Shown: piece after piece, positions 20,225-37,164 of the stretch
How positions within the stretch are numbered: position 1 is the first letter of the stretch
Layout: each line of letters starts with the position of its first letter
Origin: an uncultured Bifidobacteriaceae bacterium
GTDB taxonomy: Bacteria; Bacteroidota; Bacteroidia; Chitinophagales; UBA10324
DNA: 64,000 bases
Assembly (NCBI GenBank): GCA_964640655.1
Contig: CAZXFT010000007.1
Coordinates: 42,753 to 106,752 of the forward strand
Reading direction: 5' to 3'
The notes under the pieces: generated by a model
Seen by the model: the letters and a program-made list of their open reading frames with translations, nothing else
Database searches by the model: none
What the model was told of the DNA's origin: nothing
Position numbers and translations under genes: made by a program

Positions 20225-22465
20225 TTATTCGTAGTCCTGCTGCAGGATTTTTTCTATGGAATTATTATACAAATCTTTCCATTCATCCACATCACCAAAC
20301 TCCTGTTCATCAATAACCAAGTTACCACTAGTTACGTGACCAAGAGAGACAAACTCTATTTCGGTATTCATTAAATATTTGATGAAAGCATCTTCTTTGC
20401 TGCGGCTTACACTTACCACCACACGGCTTTGCGATTCGCCAAACAGGTATGCATCTTTTCTAAAATCTGTATCGGTGCTGATGTCGAAGCCCAATTCACC
20501 GGGCATAGCACTTTCAAGCAAAGCCACAAACAAACCTCCATCGGAACAGTCGTGTGCACTTTCAATCAATCCCTGTTGAATGATTTCATATAAATGTTTT
20601 TGTAACAACAATTCTTCGTCCATGTTAAAGTAAGGGGCTGGAGATTCTTTGATGTTGCGCACATTTGTGAGGTACTCGCTGCTTGCAATATCGTTGGTTA
20701 CCACACCCAGTAGATAGATACGGTCTAAAGGATTCTTGAAGTTTAAAGTCATGCGCTTGCTCATATCATCTATCACACCTACCATTCCTATTGTAGGAGT
20801 TGGAAACACAGGTCCATCATCAGTGGACTGGTTATAGAAACTGACATTACCTCCGGTAACAGGAGTATCTATAGCGCGGCAGGCATCTCCCATTCCTTGA
20901 ATAGCTTCAACGAATTGCCAGTACACGTGCGGATTATATGGATTGCCAAAGTTTAAACAATTGGTAACCGCAGCCGGACGGCCACCGCTACATACAATGT
21001 TGCGTGCCGCTTCGCTCACGGCTATCAATGCACCGGTGTAAGGTTGTGCAAATACATAACGTGAGTTGCAATCAACGGTAACAGCCAACGCCTTGTTGGA
21101 GTCTTTGATACGTATTACAGCCGCATCGCTCGGAGCATTGGTAGAAGTATTATTAATGCCCACCATAGAATCGTACTGCTCGTATATCCAGCGCTTGGAT
21201 GCCACGTTAGGCAACTGCACCAGCTTGCGCGCCATCACCTTATAGTCAATAGGCACGCGTATATCATCAGGATTAAAGTTTTCCAGTTCGTCTATATAAG
21301 AGGGTTGTTCATACTCGCGCTCGTAAACGGGAGCACCACCACCAAGCACCAGCACATCGGCTGGCACATCGGCAACCAGTTCGCCGTTGAAATAATATTC
21401 TAAAAATCGTGTATCGGTAACTTCACCTATCTGAACACAATTCAAGTCCCATTTGTCAAAAACATCCTGCACCAGTTTTTCTTTTCCTTTCTCTACCACC
21501 ACCAACATACGCTCTTGCGATTCGGAGAGCAATATTTCAAAAGGCTTCATGTTCTCTTGGCGTGTAGGTACTCGGTCTAAGTATATTTTCATGCCGCTTT
21601 CGCCTTTGGCGCTCATCTCTGAGGTAGAACAAGTAATACCTGCAGCACCCATGTCCTGCATGCCTATAATGGCGCCGGTGTTGATGGCTTCCAATGTAGC
21701 TTCCAGCAAAAGTTTTTCCTGAAATGGATCACCCACTTGCACGCTGGGCAATTTTTCTGCACTCTCTTCGGTGATGTCGGCCGAAGCAAACGTGGCACCG
21801 TGTATGCCGTCTTTGCCTGTTGCAGAGCCAACGATAAATACCGGATTGCCCACACCTTTGGCTATTGCCGAAACGGTTTTTCCTTTTTCAACAATGCCTA
21901 CACTCATGGCATTCACCAAAGGATTGGTATGAAAAGATTCATCGAAAAATACCTCGCCGGCAACGGTGGGAACCCCGAAGGCATTACCGTAGTCGCCAAT
22001 GCCTTTAACCACGCCGCGCAACAAATGTCTGGTGCGGCTCTCGTTCAGGTTACCGAAACGCAAGGAGTTCAGCGCCGCTATGGGACGCGCTCCCATGGTA
22101 AATATATCTCTATGAATGCCCCCTACTCCGGTTGCGGCCCCCTGATAAGGTTCAATGGCCGAGGGGTGATTATGACTTTCTATCTTGAAAGCACAGGCCA
22201 GATTATTACCTATGTCTATGAGGCCGGCATTTTCCTCGCCTGCTTTGCTAAGCAGAAGTCCACCTTCGCGCGGCAATGTTTTCAGCCACTTGATAGAGTT
22301 TTTATAGGAGCAGTGCTCGCTCCACATCACCGAGAAAATGCTCAGCTCCGTAAAGTTGGGATTGCGACCCAGTATGTCCACTATGTTATTGAATTCTTCT
22401 TCGCTTAATCCCAGTTTAGCAGCTGTTTCTACTCCGGGTAATGTCTCATTGATGGTTTGACTCAT
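20225..22465 (-). CDS. purL: phosphoribosylformylglycinamidine synthase subunit PurL
   Basis: 746 aa, with [28 protein letters not shown] and duplicated AIR-synthase-like domains. Confidence 0.92.
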
Positions 22466-22502
22466 GGTTTTTGTTTAAAAAAAATATAAAATGAATGAGG
22501 CA

Positions 22503-22510
22503 CAAAAGTA
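22503..22510 (-). promoter_or_regulatory. candidate Bacteroidota -7 box (TACTTTTG) for purL
   Basis: Minus-strand TACTTTTG matches TAnnTTTG and sits 38 nt upstream of the purL ATG. This spacing matches the other boxes found in this window. No clear -33 TTG. Confidence 0.4.
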
Positions 22511-22687
22511 AGGCGGGCAGAATATTTAGGAGGGGAAGAATGTGCGGCTGAATTTTGGAACGAGTGCCATGTTATTTGTGAAGTAATGTGGATGGTTGAA
22601 GTATGTACAACAGATGATGATGTTGCTACAGGGAAGGAAATGCTTTACTTCACTTCCTTATATCTACAACTACAGCATACTTAACTG

Positions 22688-22703
22688 CATACATATATAT
22701 ATG
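22688..22703. repeat. left copy of the flanking 16-bp direct repeat CATACATATATATATG (inside the 18-nt palindrome ATACATATATATATGTAT)
   Basis: Identical 16-mer at 22688-22703 and 23650-23665. Confidence 0.9.
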
Positions 22704-22721
22704 TATCATCCCCGGCTTTTA

Positions 22722-23253
22722 TTGAAATGCTCTTCGCTTGAATTGAACCAAGCTTAGCTTTTATTGAAAAACCCCTCGCCTAAGTTGAACCACACTCCCT
22801 TTTTATGGAAAAACCCCTTGCCTAAGTTGAACCACCCTTACCCTTTCTTGAACCAAACTCCCCTTTAATTGAAAAACACTCCCTAAAACCTGAACTAAAC
22901 TCACCCTTAGTCGAATCTGCCAAAATGTCCATTGAACGACATGAATCGGAAATTGAAGCAGTCGAAGATCGAGTTGAACGACCCGAAGATGCTTTCGAAC
23001 AACCCGACGTTTGAGTTGAACGACATGAAGGAGCTTCTGAACGACATGAATCGGAAATTGAAGCAGCTGAAGCGGAAGTTGTGTCAGTTGAAGATGCTTT
23101 TGAACGACCCGAAGATGCTTTCGAACAACATGAATCGGAAATTGAAGCAGTTGAAGCGGAAGTTGTGTCAGTTGAAGATGCTTTTGAACGACCCGAAGAT
23201 GCTTTTGAACGAGACGACGATGCTTTTGAACGAGATGACGATGCTTTCGAAAA
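22722..23253 (+). repeat. left arm of the 21-bp periodic array: 26 tandem 21-bp units with a TTGAAC-type core
   Basis: The core hexamer sits at 22722 + 21n for n = 0..25 with no indel. Variants are TTGAAA/TTGAAG/TCGAAC/CTGAAC, and degenerate units fall at 22806, 23079 and 23163. Central consensus is TTGAACGACCCGAAGATGCTT. Confidence 0.9.
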
Positions 23254-23596
23254 AATTCAGAAGCATCTTCATGTCGTTCAACGACATCTCACTGTCGTTC
23301 AGAAACTCCTTCATATCATTCACAAGCATGTGACTTTGGTTCAGAAACTCCTTATTCCGGTTCAGAAACTCCTTCATGCGGTTCAAAAACTCCTACCCTC
23401 TGTTAAATAAAAAGTGATTTTGCTTCAAAGCCAACTACCTAAGGTTCAAAAAAAAGTGAAGGTGGTTCAGAAGCCGGTTCAGGTTATTCAATTTAAAGTA
23501 AGTGAGATTCGAAAAGGGGGATGTTTTATAAAATGAAGTATCAGCGTTTTTCGACCGAAACTGTCTTATTAATATTTAGAAGTTCAAGTTTTTCAA
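23254..23596 (-). repeat. right arm of the array: about 12-16 units of 21 bp in inverted orientation (GTTCAA/GTTCAG core)
   Basis: The core is at 23276, 23297, 23318, 23339, 23360, 23381, 23402, 23423, 23444, 23464, 23485 and 23506, then decays. Positions mirror the left arm about 23253.5 (for example 23226-23231 mirrors 23276-23281). Confidence 0.85.
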
Positions 23597-23649
23597 CTTA
23601 AACAACATTGAATACTATACAACCGAAAAATGAAAATATTTAGGCGAGC

Positions 23650-23665
23650 CATACATATATATATG
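23650..23665. repeat. right copy of the flanking 16-bp direct repeat CATACATATATATATG
   Basis: Identical to 22688-22703. The two copies bracket the whole 21-bp array. Confidence 0.9.
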
Positions 23666-23707
23666 AATGTGCTGAAAAGAAATCATCCATAAAAGTCTAA
23701 GAAACAG

Positions 23708-24817
23708 TTACGATGAGTGATGGTTGGTTTGCCAACGAATTTTTGATAACGGCTTTTCAATCAGTAAATAAAAAAGCATGGAAAAAAAGATGGTGAGCAG
23801 CAAGAAGAAATATATCTTGAAATGCTGCGGCAATGGAGTGCGCAGCGCAAGGTTCAGAAAAAGCATATGAAACAGATACATACTGAAACTAATGCTGCCT
23901 ATGAAACGCAGGGGTTTAAACTCCAATATTTTTCTAATAAATCCACGGCCATATTTGGCAGCAATTAAAACTATACCCCACAGCAAAGCATAAGGGAAAT
24001 AATAAACTGATGATTGTGAATTGATGCTCTGATGAAACAACTTTTCAAAATAATAAGGGAATGAACAGAGAATAATAATCAATGACAGAGCGGCAAGTAT
24101 ATCGGCATAAAGCGGACGAATAATTTGGTGTAGTGGTTTCGTATTCCAGATTTCATAAACAGAGATAAAAGTGCCCACCAAAAACACCGGTAAAAAGCGG
24201 TAAGTTGAAATAAGCGGCAGATGAAAACTCAACTCAACAGCTATGGATGCAGCGATGAGTATCAGAAAAAAGAATAACATTTTTGTGCGCTCCCACTTCA
24301 GGTAAGTATGACAAAACCACATTAGTGCAGGTGAAAGAAAATAATACTTAAACTCAACCGGTATAGACCAAAAAACGTCCTTGCCCTTGAGTAACAGCAT
24401 GTGTAATGGTAAATCTATGAGTCGGTTTATCTTGGTCTCTATACCAAGTAGTGTAAACAATCCATAAATAAAAAGAGCTATAAGATAAAGCGGATAAATT
24501 CTTAAAAAGCGGCGAAGAAAATAATTCTTCCAATAATTGATTGATGCTTTTCGGTTATAAAAGGCTAATGCAATTTGCCTGTCTAAGAGATAAGCCGACA
24601 AGACAAAAAACAGATACACGCCAATTTTTCCGGTTTGCTTAAAATTCAATTGCTCGTGAAAAAACAATCCTGCGTTTGCCGAATGAGAGAGCAAAACCAC
24701 CAGCACCGCCAAACCGCGCAAACCATCCAAAGCTTTTAAATGGCTTTGGTTTTGATCGTGAGGTAAAAATAATTTATTTAATGTGTTTACTAGCATCTGT
24801 GCGCGTAAAGTACTCAC
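23708..24817 (-). CDS. acyltransferase family 3 membrane protein (O-acyltransferase type)
   Basis: About 10 predicted TM helices and the N-terminal signature LDGLRGLAVLVVLLSH. The listed start is GTG; an ATG 7 codons in (24796) is an alternative. Confidence 0.8.
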   Translation of the reverse strand: MSTLRAQMLVNTLNKLFLPHDQNQSHLKALDGLRGLAVLVVLLSHSANAGLFFHEQLNFKQTGKIGVYLFFVLSAYLLDRQIALAFYNRKASINYWKNYFLRRFLRIYPLYLIALFIYGLFTLLGIETKINRLIDLPLHMLLLKGKDVFWSIPVEFKYYFLSPALMWFCHTYLKWERTKMLFFFLILIAASIAVELSFHLPLISTYRFLPVFLVGTFISVYEIWNTKPLHQIIRPLYADILAALSLIIILCSFPYYFEKLFHQSINSQSSVYYFPYALLWGIVLIAAKYGRGFIRKILEFKPLRFIGSISFSMYLFHMLFLNLALRTPLPQHFKIYFFLLLTIFFSMLFYLLIEKPLSKIRWQTNHHSS

Positions 24818-24899
24818 ATAGTTAATAAATTATTATTTAGTTCAGCTGTACTAAAACTTTAGGTTACAGTGATAATATTTAAACGAAGCCTGAAAATAT

Positions 24900-25160
24900 T
24901 TAAACGTGCTGTGTGCGATACATCACATCGAGCCGGGAGCCGCCATCCTGGCAGGCTGCACCAGTCTCTTTAAGGTAGTAAGAAGCCTGAGCGCTTCGGT
25001 TTCCGCCGGCACAACAAAGCACTATGGGTTGTTGCATGGCTTTAATTTCTTCTATGCGCTGCAAAATTTACTGAAGCGGAATATGGATGCTGTCTGCCAC
25101 ATGGCCAGCGGCATATACGCCGCGCGAGCGCACATCTATGATGATTGAATTACTGTGCAT
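24900..25160 (-). pseudogene. rhodanese-domain gene remnant with an in-frame TAA (codon 31) and a shortened N-terminus
   Basis: The minus strand reads MHSNSIIIDVRSRGVYAAGHVADSIHIPLQ*ILQRIEEIKAMQQPIVLCCAGGNRSAQASYYLKETG.. The IDVR motif and active-site loop CAGGNRS are rhodanese hallmarks. The stop is at 25068-25070. Confidence 0.7.
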
Positions 25161-30167: not shown

Positions 30168-30765
30168 TTGTATTTTAGTGCGCGCACTTATTCTTTGAGC
30201 CCCGTTTCATACCATAATCACAGCGACAGCGAGTTAATCTCTCTTTATAAAGAAGAGAAAAACAAAGAGGCATTTGGTACTTTATACCAGCGCCATGCAC
30301 ATCTGGTATTTGGCGTTTGTATGAAATACCTTAAAAATCGTGACGATGCCGAGGATGCGGTGATGCAGATTTTTGAAAAATTGCTCACGGATATTTTAAA
30401 ACATGAAGTTCAGGAGTTCCGCTTTTGGGTGCATACAGTTGCTAAAAACCATTGCCTGATGCATTTACGTAAAGAGCAGAGTTTAATGAAGCATCAGAAC
30501 CAATTAAATAAAGATGCAGGTTTAATTATGGATTTTAGTGAAGATGCGCATCTGGATAAAAACGAATGGAAAGAATTTCAACTGAACGAAATGAATAACG
30601 CTTTAACCAAACTGAATGAGCAGCAACGCATCTGTGTAGAGCTTTTTTACATTCATGACAGGTCGTATCAGGAAATTGTGGAGCAAACTGGGTATTCCAT
30701 GAACGAGGTGCGCAGTTATATTCAGAATGGAAAAAGAAATTTGAAAATACAAATAGAAAAAAGCC

Positions 30766-30779
<14 letters not shown>
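30168..30779 (+). CDS. RNA polymerase sigma-70 factor, ECF subfamily
   Basis: Region 2 (ELISLYKEEKNKEAFGTLYQRHAHLVFGVCMKYL..DAEDAVMQIF) and region 4 (LNEQQRICVELFYIHDRSYQEIVEQTGYSMNEVRSYI). The start is uncertain (TTG at 30168 or in-frame TTG at 30195). Confidence 0.85.
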
Positions 30780-33917
<3,138 letters not shown>

Positions 33918-34710: not shown

Positions 34711-37164
34711 ATGAAAAATAATTTATGGAGTAGCTTCATTTGCCTTGCTGTTGTTATTTGTTCGTACAGTTCATTTGCACAATCCTATTCAGGCTTTCGT
34801 ACAGGCAGCTATGCGGGTATCCATGGAGCATTGTTTAATCCCGCATTTATTGCTGACAACAGACTAAAGTATGATATCAATCTGGTTTCTATGAATGTAA
34901 GTGCAGGAAATAATTTCCTCACCATTGATAACAGTGCATTATTCAACCCTAAGAAGTTTAATGAAGAAGGATTTAAAGAGAAATATGTAACACAAAACCT
35001 GGATGGTAAAACCAAAAATGTATATCTGAACATTGACATTATAGGGCCTGCATTTTTTCTTGAACTGTCAGAAAAAGATGCCTTAGGGTTTTATATGCGT
35101 ACACGTGGAATGGTAAATGTTGACGGAATTGATCAGGGGACTGCCGAAATAGCATACCGTGATTTACGCGACGATGAATTATTAAAACCTTTCAGTGGCT
35201 CGCATGCTTTAATTAATCAAAATCTTTGGACAGAATATGCTTTCCCTTATGCACGTATTGTGCACAATGATGGAGAAAACGTAATTAAACTTGGCGGTAC
35301 CTTAAAACTATTGCAAGGCATTGCCAGCACATATGCCTCTGTAACAGATTACACCTATACTCACCTGAATCGTGATACCATGATTAACATGAGTGGTAAT
35401 GTAGGTTATGGTCGTTCGCAAAATACCTTCTGGCAGGAAGGTGGGGCTAAGTTTAAATTTGAACAAGCCGGCATTGGATTAGATCTGGGAATCATTTACG
35501 AGTATCGTCCAGATTTTGAAGAGCAGAAGTATGATCTAGATGGTGTAAAAGACATTATGCCTAAATACACTGATGTATATAAATTAAAACTTGGTTTTTC
35601 AATTACTGACATCGGAACCATACGTTATAAGAAATCTGACAAGTCTCGTGATTATATAGATAACACAGCTGTTATGGACTTAGACCTGTTCAAGAATCTG
35701 GCAAGCTTTGAAGATATGGACACCCGTATTGAAAATGTTCCCGGTAATGTCCCCGATGCTGCGAACAAGAAAAAGTTTAGTATGAATTTGCCTTTAGCAT
35801 TAAACTTTATGGCAGACTACAGAATAGGCAAAGGCTTTTATCTGAATTTAAATCCAATAGTTGCTCTGCGTGCGGGTAAAGGCGACGTTAATAAAACTCA
35901 TTACTTCACAAACTTCGCGCTTACTCCTCGTTGGGAGAATCGTTGGTTTGGTGTCTACATTCCTGTGGAGTACAACACTTATATGAAGTTCAATACGGGT
36001 TTATCACTACGGTTAGGGCCTGTGTTTGTAGGTTCCGGTAATATTTTATCGAATATTGGCTCCGGAGAAACAAACAAAATTGATGTTGCCGGTGGTGTGA
36101 AAGTGCCAATTCCATATCCTAAACCAAAAGATAGAGATAAGGATGGTGTGAGTGATAAATTAGATTTATGTATTAATCTGAAGGGAACTTGGGAAACCAA
36201 AGGCTGTCCAGACAGAGATGGCGATGGAATACTGGACGATGATGATAAATGTCCTGATGTACCTGGCATCAAAGCATTTAACGGCTGCCCTGATCGTGAT
36301 GGCGATGGTATTCAGGATAGTGAAGATGCATGCCCTGATGTAGCCGGTAAACTTGAAATGCAGGGTTGTCCGGATAGAGATAATGACGGAATTGCGGATA
36401 AGGATGATCGTTGTCCGGATATAGCAGGAATTAAAACATTTAACGGCTGCCCTGATACTGATAAGGATGGGATAGCAGATATTGATGATGATTGTCCAAA
36501 TATTGCAGGACCAAAAGAAAACAATGGTTGCCCATATGCTGATACCGATGGAGATGGGGTGCTGGATAAAGATGATCGTTGTCCAACTGTGAAGGGACCT
36601 ATTGCAAACTATGGTTGCCCATATGTTGACACAGATGAGGATGGTGTATTGGATAAAGACGATGCCTGCCCAACTATTAAAGGCCCTGTCGAGAATAAAG
36701 GTTGTCCATATTCCGATACAGACGGTGATGGCATAATAGATTTGGAAGATGAATGCCCCGCAACTCCTGGTCCTGCAAGTAATAAAGGTTGTCCGGTTAT
36801 TGAAGAAAAAGTGAAAGAAATTTTGAAAACGGTATTCGACAATCTGGAATTTGAAACAGGCAAATCAGTGATCCGTGAATCGTCTTACATAAGTTTAGAT
36901 GAACTGGCAGATTTGCTGATTAAAAAACCTGAGTACCGATTACTCATTGAAGGCCACACAGATAATGTTGGCTCTCGTGAGTCAAATATGACCTTGTCAC
37001 GAAATAGAGCTAATTCTGTTCAGGCTTATCTCATAAACAAAGGCGTAAAAGATTCTCAAATGAAGACCAACTATTACGGTCCTGATAAACCGGTAGACAA
37101 TAATGCTACACCAGAAGGACGTCAGCGTAACCGCCGTGTTGAGTTTAACATTTACTTCGAGTAA
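34711..37164 (+). CDS. OmpA family outer-membrane protein with N-terminal beta-barrel-like region and about 9 thrombospondin type-3 (calcium-binding) repeats
   Basis: Signal peptide and repeated DxDxDGxxDxxDxCP units between about 36120 and 36790. C-terminal OmpA domain (LLIEGHTDNVGSRESNMTLSRNRANSVQAYL..NRRVEF). Confidence 0.9.
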   Translation: MKNNLWSSFICLAVVICSYSSFAQSYSGFRTGSYAGIHGALFNPAFIADNRLKYDINLVSMNVSAGNNFLTIDNSALFNPKKFNEEGFKEKYVTQNLDGKTKNVYLNIDIIGPAFFLELSEKDALGFYMRTRGMVNVDGIDQGTAEIAYRDLRDDELLKPFSGSHALINQNLWTEYAFPYARIVHNDGENVIKLGGTLKLLQGIASTYASVTDYTYTHLNRDTMINMSGNVGYGRSQNTFWQEGGAKFKFEQAGIGLDLGIIYEYRPDFEEQKYDLDGVKDIMPKYTDVYKLKLGFSITDIGTIRYKKSDKSRDYIDNTAVMDLDLFKNLASFEDMDTRIENVPGNVPDAANKKKFSMNLPLALNFMADYRIGKGFYLNLNPIVALRAGKGDVNKTHYFTNFALTPRWENRWFGVYIPVEYNTYMKFNTGLSLRLGPVFVGSGNILSNIGSGETNKIDVAGGVKVPIPYPKPKDRDKDGVSDKLDLCINLKGTWETKGCPDRDGDGILDDDDKCPDVPGIKAFNGCPDRDGDGIQDSEDACPDVAGKLEMQGCPDRDNDGIADKDDRCPDIAGIKTFNGCPDTDKDGIADIDDDCPNIAGPKENNGCPYADTDGDGVLDKDDRCPTVKGPIANYGCPYVDTDEDGVLDKDDACPTIKGPVENKGCPYSDTDGDGIIDLEDECPATPGPASNKGCPVIEEKVKEILKTVFDNLEFETGKSVIRESSYISLDELADLLIKKPEYRLLIEGHTDNVGSRESNMTLSRNRANSVQAYLINKGVKDSQMKTNYYGPDKPVDNNATPEGRQRNRRVEFNIYFE

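Follow-up and report, generated by a model that had tools for sequence, protein, structure and literature searches.

Heptad tandem-repeat open reading frames (ORFs) and coiled-coil proteins are built from a unit of seven codons that is repeated without indels, with a hydrophobic residue at a fixed position and a strong codon phase. Plasmid and phage iterons are short conserved cores about two helical turns apart, present in direct and inverted copies. Foldback elements, which are known from eukaryotes, have in common with large palindromes long imperfect inverted arms made of short tandem subrepeats in colinear mirror order. Finally, LytTR regulators recognize 9-bp direct repeats separated by a 12-bp spacer, which are 21 bp apart centre-to-centre (PMC6193735). 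Here, we have analysed an array of 21-bp units that has something of each of these systems. It lies in a 64,000-nucleotide stretch of contig CAZXFT010000007.1 (hereafter the window), in the gap between the start of purL (22465, minus strand) and the stop of an Acyl_transf_3 gene (23708, minus strand), in a genome whose PurL, ~72% identical to that of Chitinophagales-like relatives, places it among uncultured Bacteroidota. Our tentative but preferred explanation, to which we would give somewhat less than an even chance, is that this array is a minisatellite encoding heptads, or an ORFan remnant, in which an inverted duplication took place. A search of the literature on 21-bp intergenic repeats returned nothing relevant.

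On this explanation, the locus would be a palindromic form of known heptad tandem repeats. Like these, it has a seven-codon unit, no indels, a fixed hydrophobic position and a strong codon phase, and its central ORF is predicted to form one long helix. Unlike these, it is broken by five stop codons, has no homologues, shows no purifying selection between units and reverses half-way. Iteron clusters consist of 3-10 sites beside an initiator gene on a replicon, whereas this array counts 38 contiguous units, is chromosomal, has no initiator and carries a codon-like imprint. It also differs from foldback elements in that no target-site duplication, other copy or transposase gene was seen. LytTR sites are pairs found 4-11 bp upstream of a promoter, beside the regulator's own operon, whereas the array has 38 sites and there is no LytTR gene among those scanned. 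A LytTR operator was rejected on these grounds: its spacing would fit, but 38 copies are present without a suitably placed promoter, the -7 box of purL being outside the array.

The array is an ~0.8-kb block of 26 left-arm units followed by 12 right-arm units in reversed orientation, with a period of exactly 21 bp and not a single indel. Autocorrelation at lag 21 over 22688-23665 is 0.53 (z ~18 versus shuffles) and is similar at multiples of 21 up to 126, while lag-21 identity nowhere exceeds 0.42 in the rest of the window. Tandem Repeats Finder detected periods of 21, 42, 84 and 105 in the array, which is the sole intergenic tandem repeat of the window. The left-arm units span 22722-23267, with TTGAAC-like hexamers at 22722+21k (k = 0 to 25). 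A first reading of the locus, made from the letters alone (the sequence-only reading), had described this strict phase of 26 left units, which we confirmed. The hexamers stand where it had listed them, but the one at 23163 reads TTGTGT, like that at 23079, and several others are CTGAAC, TCGAAC, TCGAAT or TCGAAA. In the right arm, GTTCAA-like cores lie at 23276+21k (k = 0 to 11), in the order GTTCAA, GTTCAG, ATTCAC, GTTCAG, GTTCAG, GTTCAA, GTTAAA, CTTCAA, GTTCAA, GTTCAG, ATTCAA and ATTCGA, and an extra TTTCAA is found in the same phase at 23591. The 1-bp slip reported for this arm is nonexistent, the positions given as 23464, 23485 and 23506 each being off by one.

The best reverse-complement register (i+j = 46507) places the mirror axis at 23253.5, in agreement with the flip at 23253/23254, flanked by GATGCTT and AAGCATC, that had been read from the letters. 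The arms are ~70% complementary over the first 84 nt and 53% (156/294) over 294 nt. Their order is colinear, inner right units resembling inner left units (up to 19/21 identical) and outer right units resembling outer left ones (up to 17/21). Compared pairwise, the units have a mean identity of 0.83 over positions 1-5 (TTGAA) and of 0.39 over the remaining positions, so that the core is indeed better conserved than the rest of the unit. Superimposed on the 21-bp unit are higher-order repeats, one of 84 bp (23016-23212) with 91% identity and others with 76-77% identity, and a stop codon has been copied along with its 42-bp unit (22781 and 22823). An AT-rich palindromic 20-mer marks both boundaries, 556 bp to the left and 406 bp to the right of the mirror axis, and the 16-nt CATACATATATATATG occurs only twice in the window, once per boundary. 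The features are as follows.

22466 to 22541, minus strand: conserved upstream region of purL, including a -7 box of Bacteroidota type (TAnnTTTG, reverse complement at 22503-22510)
22688 to 22706, no strand: left boundary, AT-rich palindromic 20-mer (CATACATATATATATGTAT) containing CATACATATATATATG; inverted-repeat match over 19 nt, 95%
22722 to 22931, plus strand: outer left arm, 10 degenerate G-poor units of the form TTGAA(C/A)CAC..CT..TTTTA, with a 42-bp higher-order repeat and stops in every frame
22932 to 23253, plus strand: inner left arm, ~15 units (TTGAACGACCCGAAGATGCTT and variants), with 84- and 105-bp higher-order repeats and a very strong period of 3
23081 to 23410, plus strand: longest open stretch of plus-strand frame 3, 109 codons with a GTG start
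23240 to 23267, no strand: symmetry centre, GATGCTT (23240-46), 14 nt and AAGCATC (23261-67), with the axis at 23253/23254
23254 to 23414, minus strand: inner right arm, ~7 units with GTTCA(A/G) cores, each the reverse complement of a TTGAACGACATGAAGGAGCTT-type unit
23415 to 23527, minus strand: outer right arm, ~5 degenerate units mirroring the outer left type
23650 to 23669, no strand: right boundary, where the AT-rich palindromic 20-mer recurs (CATACATATATATATGAATG)

The array is real and not an assembly artefact, a point on which the sequence-only reading had advised a check. Logan contigs of SRR14932695, which is the same sample, cover 22300-23097 and 23176 onward with 100% identity, and a Logan contig of a second sample, SRR31643649, runs from 23176 onward, again with 100% identity. 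Because these short-read contigs match the window perfectly, both arms and the flip have been assembled independently. The contigs of both samples contain the flip and break only in the 84-bp higher-order repeat, whose copy number rests solely on the window's own assembly.

Evidence for our preferred explanation comes from a codon-like imprint. The Fourier spectrum contains the harmonics of 21 that the sequence-only reading had predicted, including one at 10.5 that is above shuffles, but its strongest peak is at 3.0. Period-3 power in 22932-23267 is 19.1, compared with a maximum of 2.5 in shuffles and 2.7 in a coding segment of purL. The share of G reaches 62% in one phase of the inner left arm, namely codon position 1 of frame 3 of the plus strand (hereafter frame 3), and the enrichment persists when variable positions alone are considered (Fisher p = 5e-5; distinct units, p = 3e-4). 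We scored codon usage by log-odds built from the window's own 18,447 codons and found that frame 3 ranks highest of the six frames; its mean score per codon is +0.21 for the array as a whole and +0.44 for the inner left arm. As controls, purL and a phoH-like gene score +0.32 and +0.36 in frame and at most +0.11, mostly negative, out of frame. Internal stops number 5 in 271 codons in frame 3 (starting at 22739, 22781, 22823, 23012 and 23408), compared with 10, 10, 11, 17 and 32 in the other frames. Codon ratios for Gln, Lys, Asp and Phe agree with those of the genome. The claim that the gap has no credible gene is right in that there is no conserved gene, but it overlooked this imprint.

The sequence read in frame 3 is heptad-like on both sides of the flip. 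At codon 7 of the heptad, 35 of the 38 units have a hydrophobic residue (I, V, M, L or F, with varied codons), in a single register that the flip leaves uninterrupted. In the left arm, the core reads N-T-Y plus GAA, i.e., a hydrophobic codon plus Glu, and in the right arm it reads, in the same frame, RTT plus CAA or CAG, i.e., Val/Ile/Leu plus Gln. The right arm spells xxVQKLL, where the a and d positions are both hydrophobic and codon 3 is always V, I or L. The positions at which the core varies are wobble positions or ones that preserve hydrophobicity. In the right arm, CAA and CAG alternate after GTT, ATT or CTT; in the left arm, where the corresponding change would be non-synonymous, it is seldom seen (24:2 versus 7:5, p = 0.02). 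Peptide strings in frame 3 include EDAFERPEDAFE and VQKLLH.

The longest open stretch, the 109-codon ORF at 23081-23410, was called as a gene on a Logan contig by the gene caller. Its N-terminal half is acidic, with a net charge of -20 and heptads such as EDAFERP, and its C-terminal half, after the flip, is basic, with a net charge of +8, seven His and xxVQKLL heptads. Frame 3 is also open upstream (from an ATG at 22925 to the stop at 23012) and downstream (23414-23536), these pieces being separated by single stops. AlphaFold 2 (AF2) predicted one long helix for the 109-residue product (pLDDT 82), which fits the heptad sequence and proves nothing. The idea of an acid-base helical hairpin for this ORF was dropped since the AF2 monomer is one long helix, chain-chain pairing being beyond a monomer model. 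It is distinctly unlikely, in our estimate, that the ORF is an expressed gene born of the palindrome, in which the C-terminal half would be the antisense translation of the N-terminal half. If it were, an acidic helix (-20) would be fused to a basic Val/Leu-zipper helix (+8, 7 His) with which it could pair as antiparallel coiled coils, and the locus would be a natural case of an inverted repeat duplication creating new protein sequence.

Put together as a heptad-coding minisatellite or ORFan remnant, the history of the locus might run as follows. A strain-specific minisatellite with a unit of seven codons (21 bp) would have grown by in-register slippage or unequal recombination, which would have produced the 42-, 84- and 105-bp higher-order repeats. 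One arm would then have been duplicated in inverted orientation, yielding a degenerate palindrome of ~980 bp with the same AT-rich palindromic 20-mer at both ends. The left arm may have gained ~7 units later, since the distances of the 20-mers from the axis are consistent with a once-symmetric palindrome. The units would carry an imprint of translation in frame 3, as continuous heptads that are acidic before the flip and basic after it, in a frame that is now broken by its five stops, leaving 109 codons as the longest open piece. Both this order of events (expansion, inverted duplication and decay) and the notion that translation shaped the units are what we infer, whereas the anatomy and phase of the array, its strain specificity, its codon-like imprint and its lack of homologues are observed. 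Most likely, the array is a decaying or very young ORFan repeat gene rather than a conserved functional element.

Several results weigh against a working gene. Besides the five in-frame stops, there is no ATG, GTG or TTG start able to span the whole array, and no Bacteroidota-type -7 box was found on the plus strand. Homologues of frames 3 and 1 are absent in a word search of 5.8 billion proteins; an exhaustive HMMER search with frame 1 as query returned five weak repeat-driven matches, frame 3 having been searched by word index only. An exact-protein look-up of both ORFs found no record, and Pfam, NCBIfam and PHROGs gave nothing above threshold, only generic coiled-coil noise. When the units are compared by the Nei-Gojobori method, omega comes to 0.92 for frame 3 in the inner left arm and to 0.9-1.4 across all open frames, compared with 0.36, 0.43 and 0.48 in three period-21 arrays from elsewhere (L043, L179 and L113, respectively). 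The two copies of the 84-bp repeat differ at five codons, each time non-synonymously in frame 3. The right arm scores ~0 in frame 3 by codon-usage log-odds, and the Logan gene caller settled on frame 1 for the left fragment but on frame 3 for the right. Measured against coiled-coil and heptad-repeat genes, the locus has the frame-safe 21-nt period and the coding statistics but lacks a spanning ORF, homologues and purifying selection. The non-coding reading originally proposed is weakened by the codon imprint but not refuted, no intact conserved heptad gene under purifying selection having been found at orthologous loci.

The composition of the core is a further point against a working gene. 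Glu is encoded by GAA in a ratio of 41:1 and Arg by CGA in a ratio of 11:0, whereas the genome uses GAA at 71:29 and CGA at 13%, and unit position 8, a third codon position, is conserved beside variable first and second positions. Because the Glu and Arg codons are so uniform, the identity of the core is at the nucleotide level and not due to amino-acid constraint only. It fits recent copying, recombination seeded in the core or constraint on the DNA itself.

Constraint on the DNA would be expected if the array were a helically phased binding site, in which a protein recognizes TTGAA every two helical turns and polymerises along ~800 bp, with arms that converge, in the manner of iterons, centromere-like sites or nucleoid scaffolds. 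We consider this unlikely. In its favour, the core identity of 0.83 versus 0.39 holds even in units that are closed in every frame, the core has no synonymous variation, position 8 is conserved despite being a third codon position, and the spacing is exactly 21 bp with a 10.5-bp harmonic above shuffles. This spacing has precedents in LytTR operators (PMC6193735) and in P4-like iterons of three viral contigs (L134, L135 and L138). Against it, neither a candidate binding protein nor a replication or partition gene is found nearby, the surroundings examined being mostly housekeeping with no mobile-element genes. There is no second site in the window (no other TTGAAC-N15-TTGAAC pair), no match in plasmid and phage collections and no array in any of five relatives, neither of the two arrays most like it has a mirror arm, and the period-3, G-phase and codon-usage signals would be unexplained. 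The cooperative protein-binding array put forward by the sequence-only reading gained no positive support. A related, more speculative proposal, that the cores have the -35/-10 spacing of promoters for extracytoplasmic function (ECF) sigma factors, was rejected. TTGAA, not CGT, lies 16-17 nt past GAAC, a spacer of 20 nt rather than 16-17 separates GAAC from the next CGAC, and the ECF sigma gene (30168-30779) is 7 kb away.

Copying and recombination would instead be expected of a neutral non-coding satellite, i.e., a GAA-rich 21-mer expanded by slippage and turned into a palindrome by template switching, which would persist because it does no harm and whose core would be kept uniform by recombination that starts in it. 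This explanation, which also strikes us as unlikely, accounts for an array that is strain-specific and seen only once, for higher-order repeats whose identities (91% and 76-77%) indicate recent in-register duplications, for an omega of ~1 and for the stop codon duplicated with the 42-bp unit. On the other hand, it does not lead one to expect five positions at 83% identity versus 39% elsewhere, G at one codon phase of the variable positions or a gene-like score in one frame only.

The pairing of the arms raises the question of a long imperfect hairpin RNA, such as a structure in the 3' untranslated region of the acyltransferase transcript or an RNase III substrate. The 311-nt centre folds as one long hairpin on either strand (-93 kcal/mol, z -4.3, for the plus strand; -106 kcal/mol, z -5.2, for the minus strand), and no terminator-like site was found on the minus strand between the acyltransferase stop and the array. 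Such a fold is, however, expected from any inverted repeat. Watson-Crick pairing amounts to only 53% over 294 nt, G-U counts (22 versus 25) show no strand asymmetry, and Rfam yielded at best two miRNA-precursor models, whose 23.7 and 19.9 bits are below their gathering scores of 84 and 60. The structure is not conserved either. With arms that are 53-70% complementary, no G-U strand bias and no Rfam match, the hairpin RNA suggested earlier is a weak proposal that we regard as highly improbable. The only terminator-like hairpin of the gap, GCTTGAATTGAACCAAGC followed by a T-rich tail, lies on the plus strand at 22736-22753, within the first repeat units.

To place the array in its genomic context, we used a comparison set of five relatives with PurL 85-92% identical to that of the window. 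The purL/acyltransferase junction, which the sequence-only reading had recommended for comparison, holds no array in 5/5 relatives, where the gaps upstream of purL measure 74-565 bp. In these relatives, the gene upstream of purL is, respectively, DinB, a response regulator, a pair of beta-eliminating lyases, a YCII-like gene and an unknown gene. In the 85% relative, four other genes stand between the A2M and rhodanese genes and purL. Similarity to the closest relative ends at 22541, so the array is outside the conserved purL promoter and does not bear on purL regulation. Its absence from close relatives also argues against a role at that promoter. By these comparisons, a segment of ~2.4 kb (22542 to ~24900) that comprises the array and the acyltransferase gene is specific to this strain.

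A strain-specific segment with inverted arms could also have arrived as a non-autonomous mobile element of foldback type, or as a small cassette that integrated, inserted between two copies of CATACATATATATATG. The inverted colinear arms made of tandem subrepeats, the 16-nt direct repeat at both ends and the presence of the array only here, within the 2.4-kb segment with the acyltransferase gene, are consistent with this. We nevertheless hold it to be very unlikely. The boundary repeat is itself palindromic and equally well part of a large palindrome, and no direct repeat that would mark a target-site duplication was seen outside the palindromic 20-mers. No empty site was found, the flanks differing in all relatives, and no second copy turned up in the window, in plasmid and phage collections (blastn) or among the other loci compared. 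No tRNA, integrase, transposase, replication, partition or regulator gene was found nearby, the scanned neighbours being mostly housekeeping, and no parA/parB or parM/parR operon was found among the ORFs scanned with Pfam. A replication origin was rejected as well, because no GC-skew turn was seen.

The junction upstream of purL (window 22466-24900; L124, L125-L128, L129, L132 and L133 elsewhere) is a hot spot of gene content, with a different gene in each lineage, and genes downstream of purL are largely syntenic among the five relatives. The lyase-bearing junction of one relative also holds MbnP and MauG. The acyltransferase gene (23708-24817) has no relative in viral contigs. Beyond it, a rhodanese-like ORF (24900-25064) encodes 54 residues, compared with 85 in the relative L129, and may be truncated or start elsewhere.

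A scan of 185,579 species genomes for four TTGAA cores at a period of 21 gave at least 120 arrays. Those among the matches listed are heterogeneous, including coding heptads, 7-bp repeats and non-coding arrays, and many are short heptad-only ORFs in intergenic gaps of many phyla. One example, L043, has LNDLKxP heptads over 139 residues with no stops, and an omega of 0.36 in its open frame; it was linked by a DNA profile. Another, L098, is a small intergenic heptad ORF with RFEQVDK units. By blastn, none of the at least 120 arrays among the matches listed resembles that of the window. A metagenome scan with TYGAACGANNNNANGATGNNNTYGAACGA returned 39 matches, mostly high-GC coding, of which only L179 and perhaps L168 are comparable. 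L179, a metagenome contig with a GC content of 38%, has 15 units of TTGAACGACCACAAGATGCCT that read ERPQDAF in frame 3; its unit is 18/21 identical to that of the window, a similarity partly forced by the search pattern. L183-185 share the unit TYNAACGATTGCAAGATGNNT, open in frame 1 only. Since a palindrome score is confounded as a flip detector by self-palindromic units, we replaced it by a run-based test. Among the ~160 arrays examined in this way, an orientation flip is found only at the window locus, and the two most similar arrays found, L179 and L183-185, are one-directional. A flip that is unique among the arrays examined is more easily explained by an accidental inverted duplication than by a designed architecture.

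If the locus is a heptad-coding minisatellite or ORFan remnant, it would offer a snapshot of the rise and decay of repeat-built ORFan genes in bacteria and would illustrate how a reading frame can grow into the antisense of itself through inverted duplication. It also calls for caution, in that a strict 21-bp period with a conserved core mimics phased binding sites and may instead be a hydrophobic-plus-Glu codon pair recurring every seven codons.

A few observations concern other loci. At least six genomes have two period-21 TTGAA arrays each among the matches listed (L014/L074, L015/L043, L017/L121, L023/L064, L024/L118 and L061/L076), which suggests that some genomes accumulate many of them. 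In an Ignavibacterium metagenome-assembled genome (L026:1-440), units of CCCCTCCACTTCTGAAGTACC, which read PSTSEVP in one frame, flank units of ACGTTGAACAAAAAAGGTTCA, each with an inverted pair TTGAAC...GTTCAA. Beside the LNDCKML-type array of L185, two copies of the hairpin motif GACCCCACGGGGGTCACACAGAAA (1520-1715) are REP-like. Viral contigs scanned for mirror patterns yielded P4-like origin iterons, analogous to the array but not its relatives. Clusters of TGAACCA(CG/ACA), direct and inverted and several of them at 21-bp spacing, are present in L134:3600-4000, L135:50-300 and L138:900-1150, and those of L134 and L135 adjoin ORFs of 668-705 residues. We take these clusters to resemble P4-type ori/crr iterons. 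The 8-mer TTGAACCA of the viral iterons also heads the outer left units of the window, probably by coincidence. Within the window, there are also coding tandem repeats: an 87-bp repeat (36484-36722) in an OmpA/TSP_3-type gene (34711-37164) and a 27-bp repeat (31303-31354) in an unannotated 389-residue ORF that follows the ECF sigma gene.

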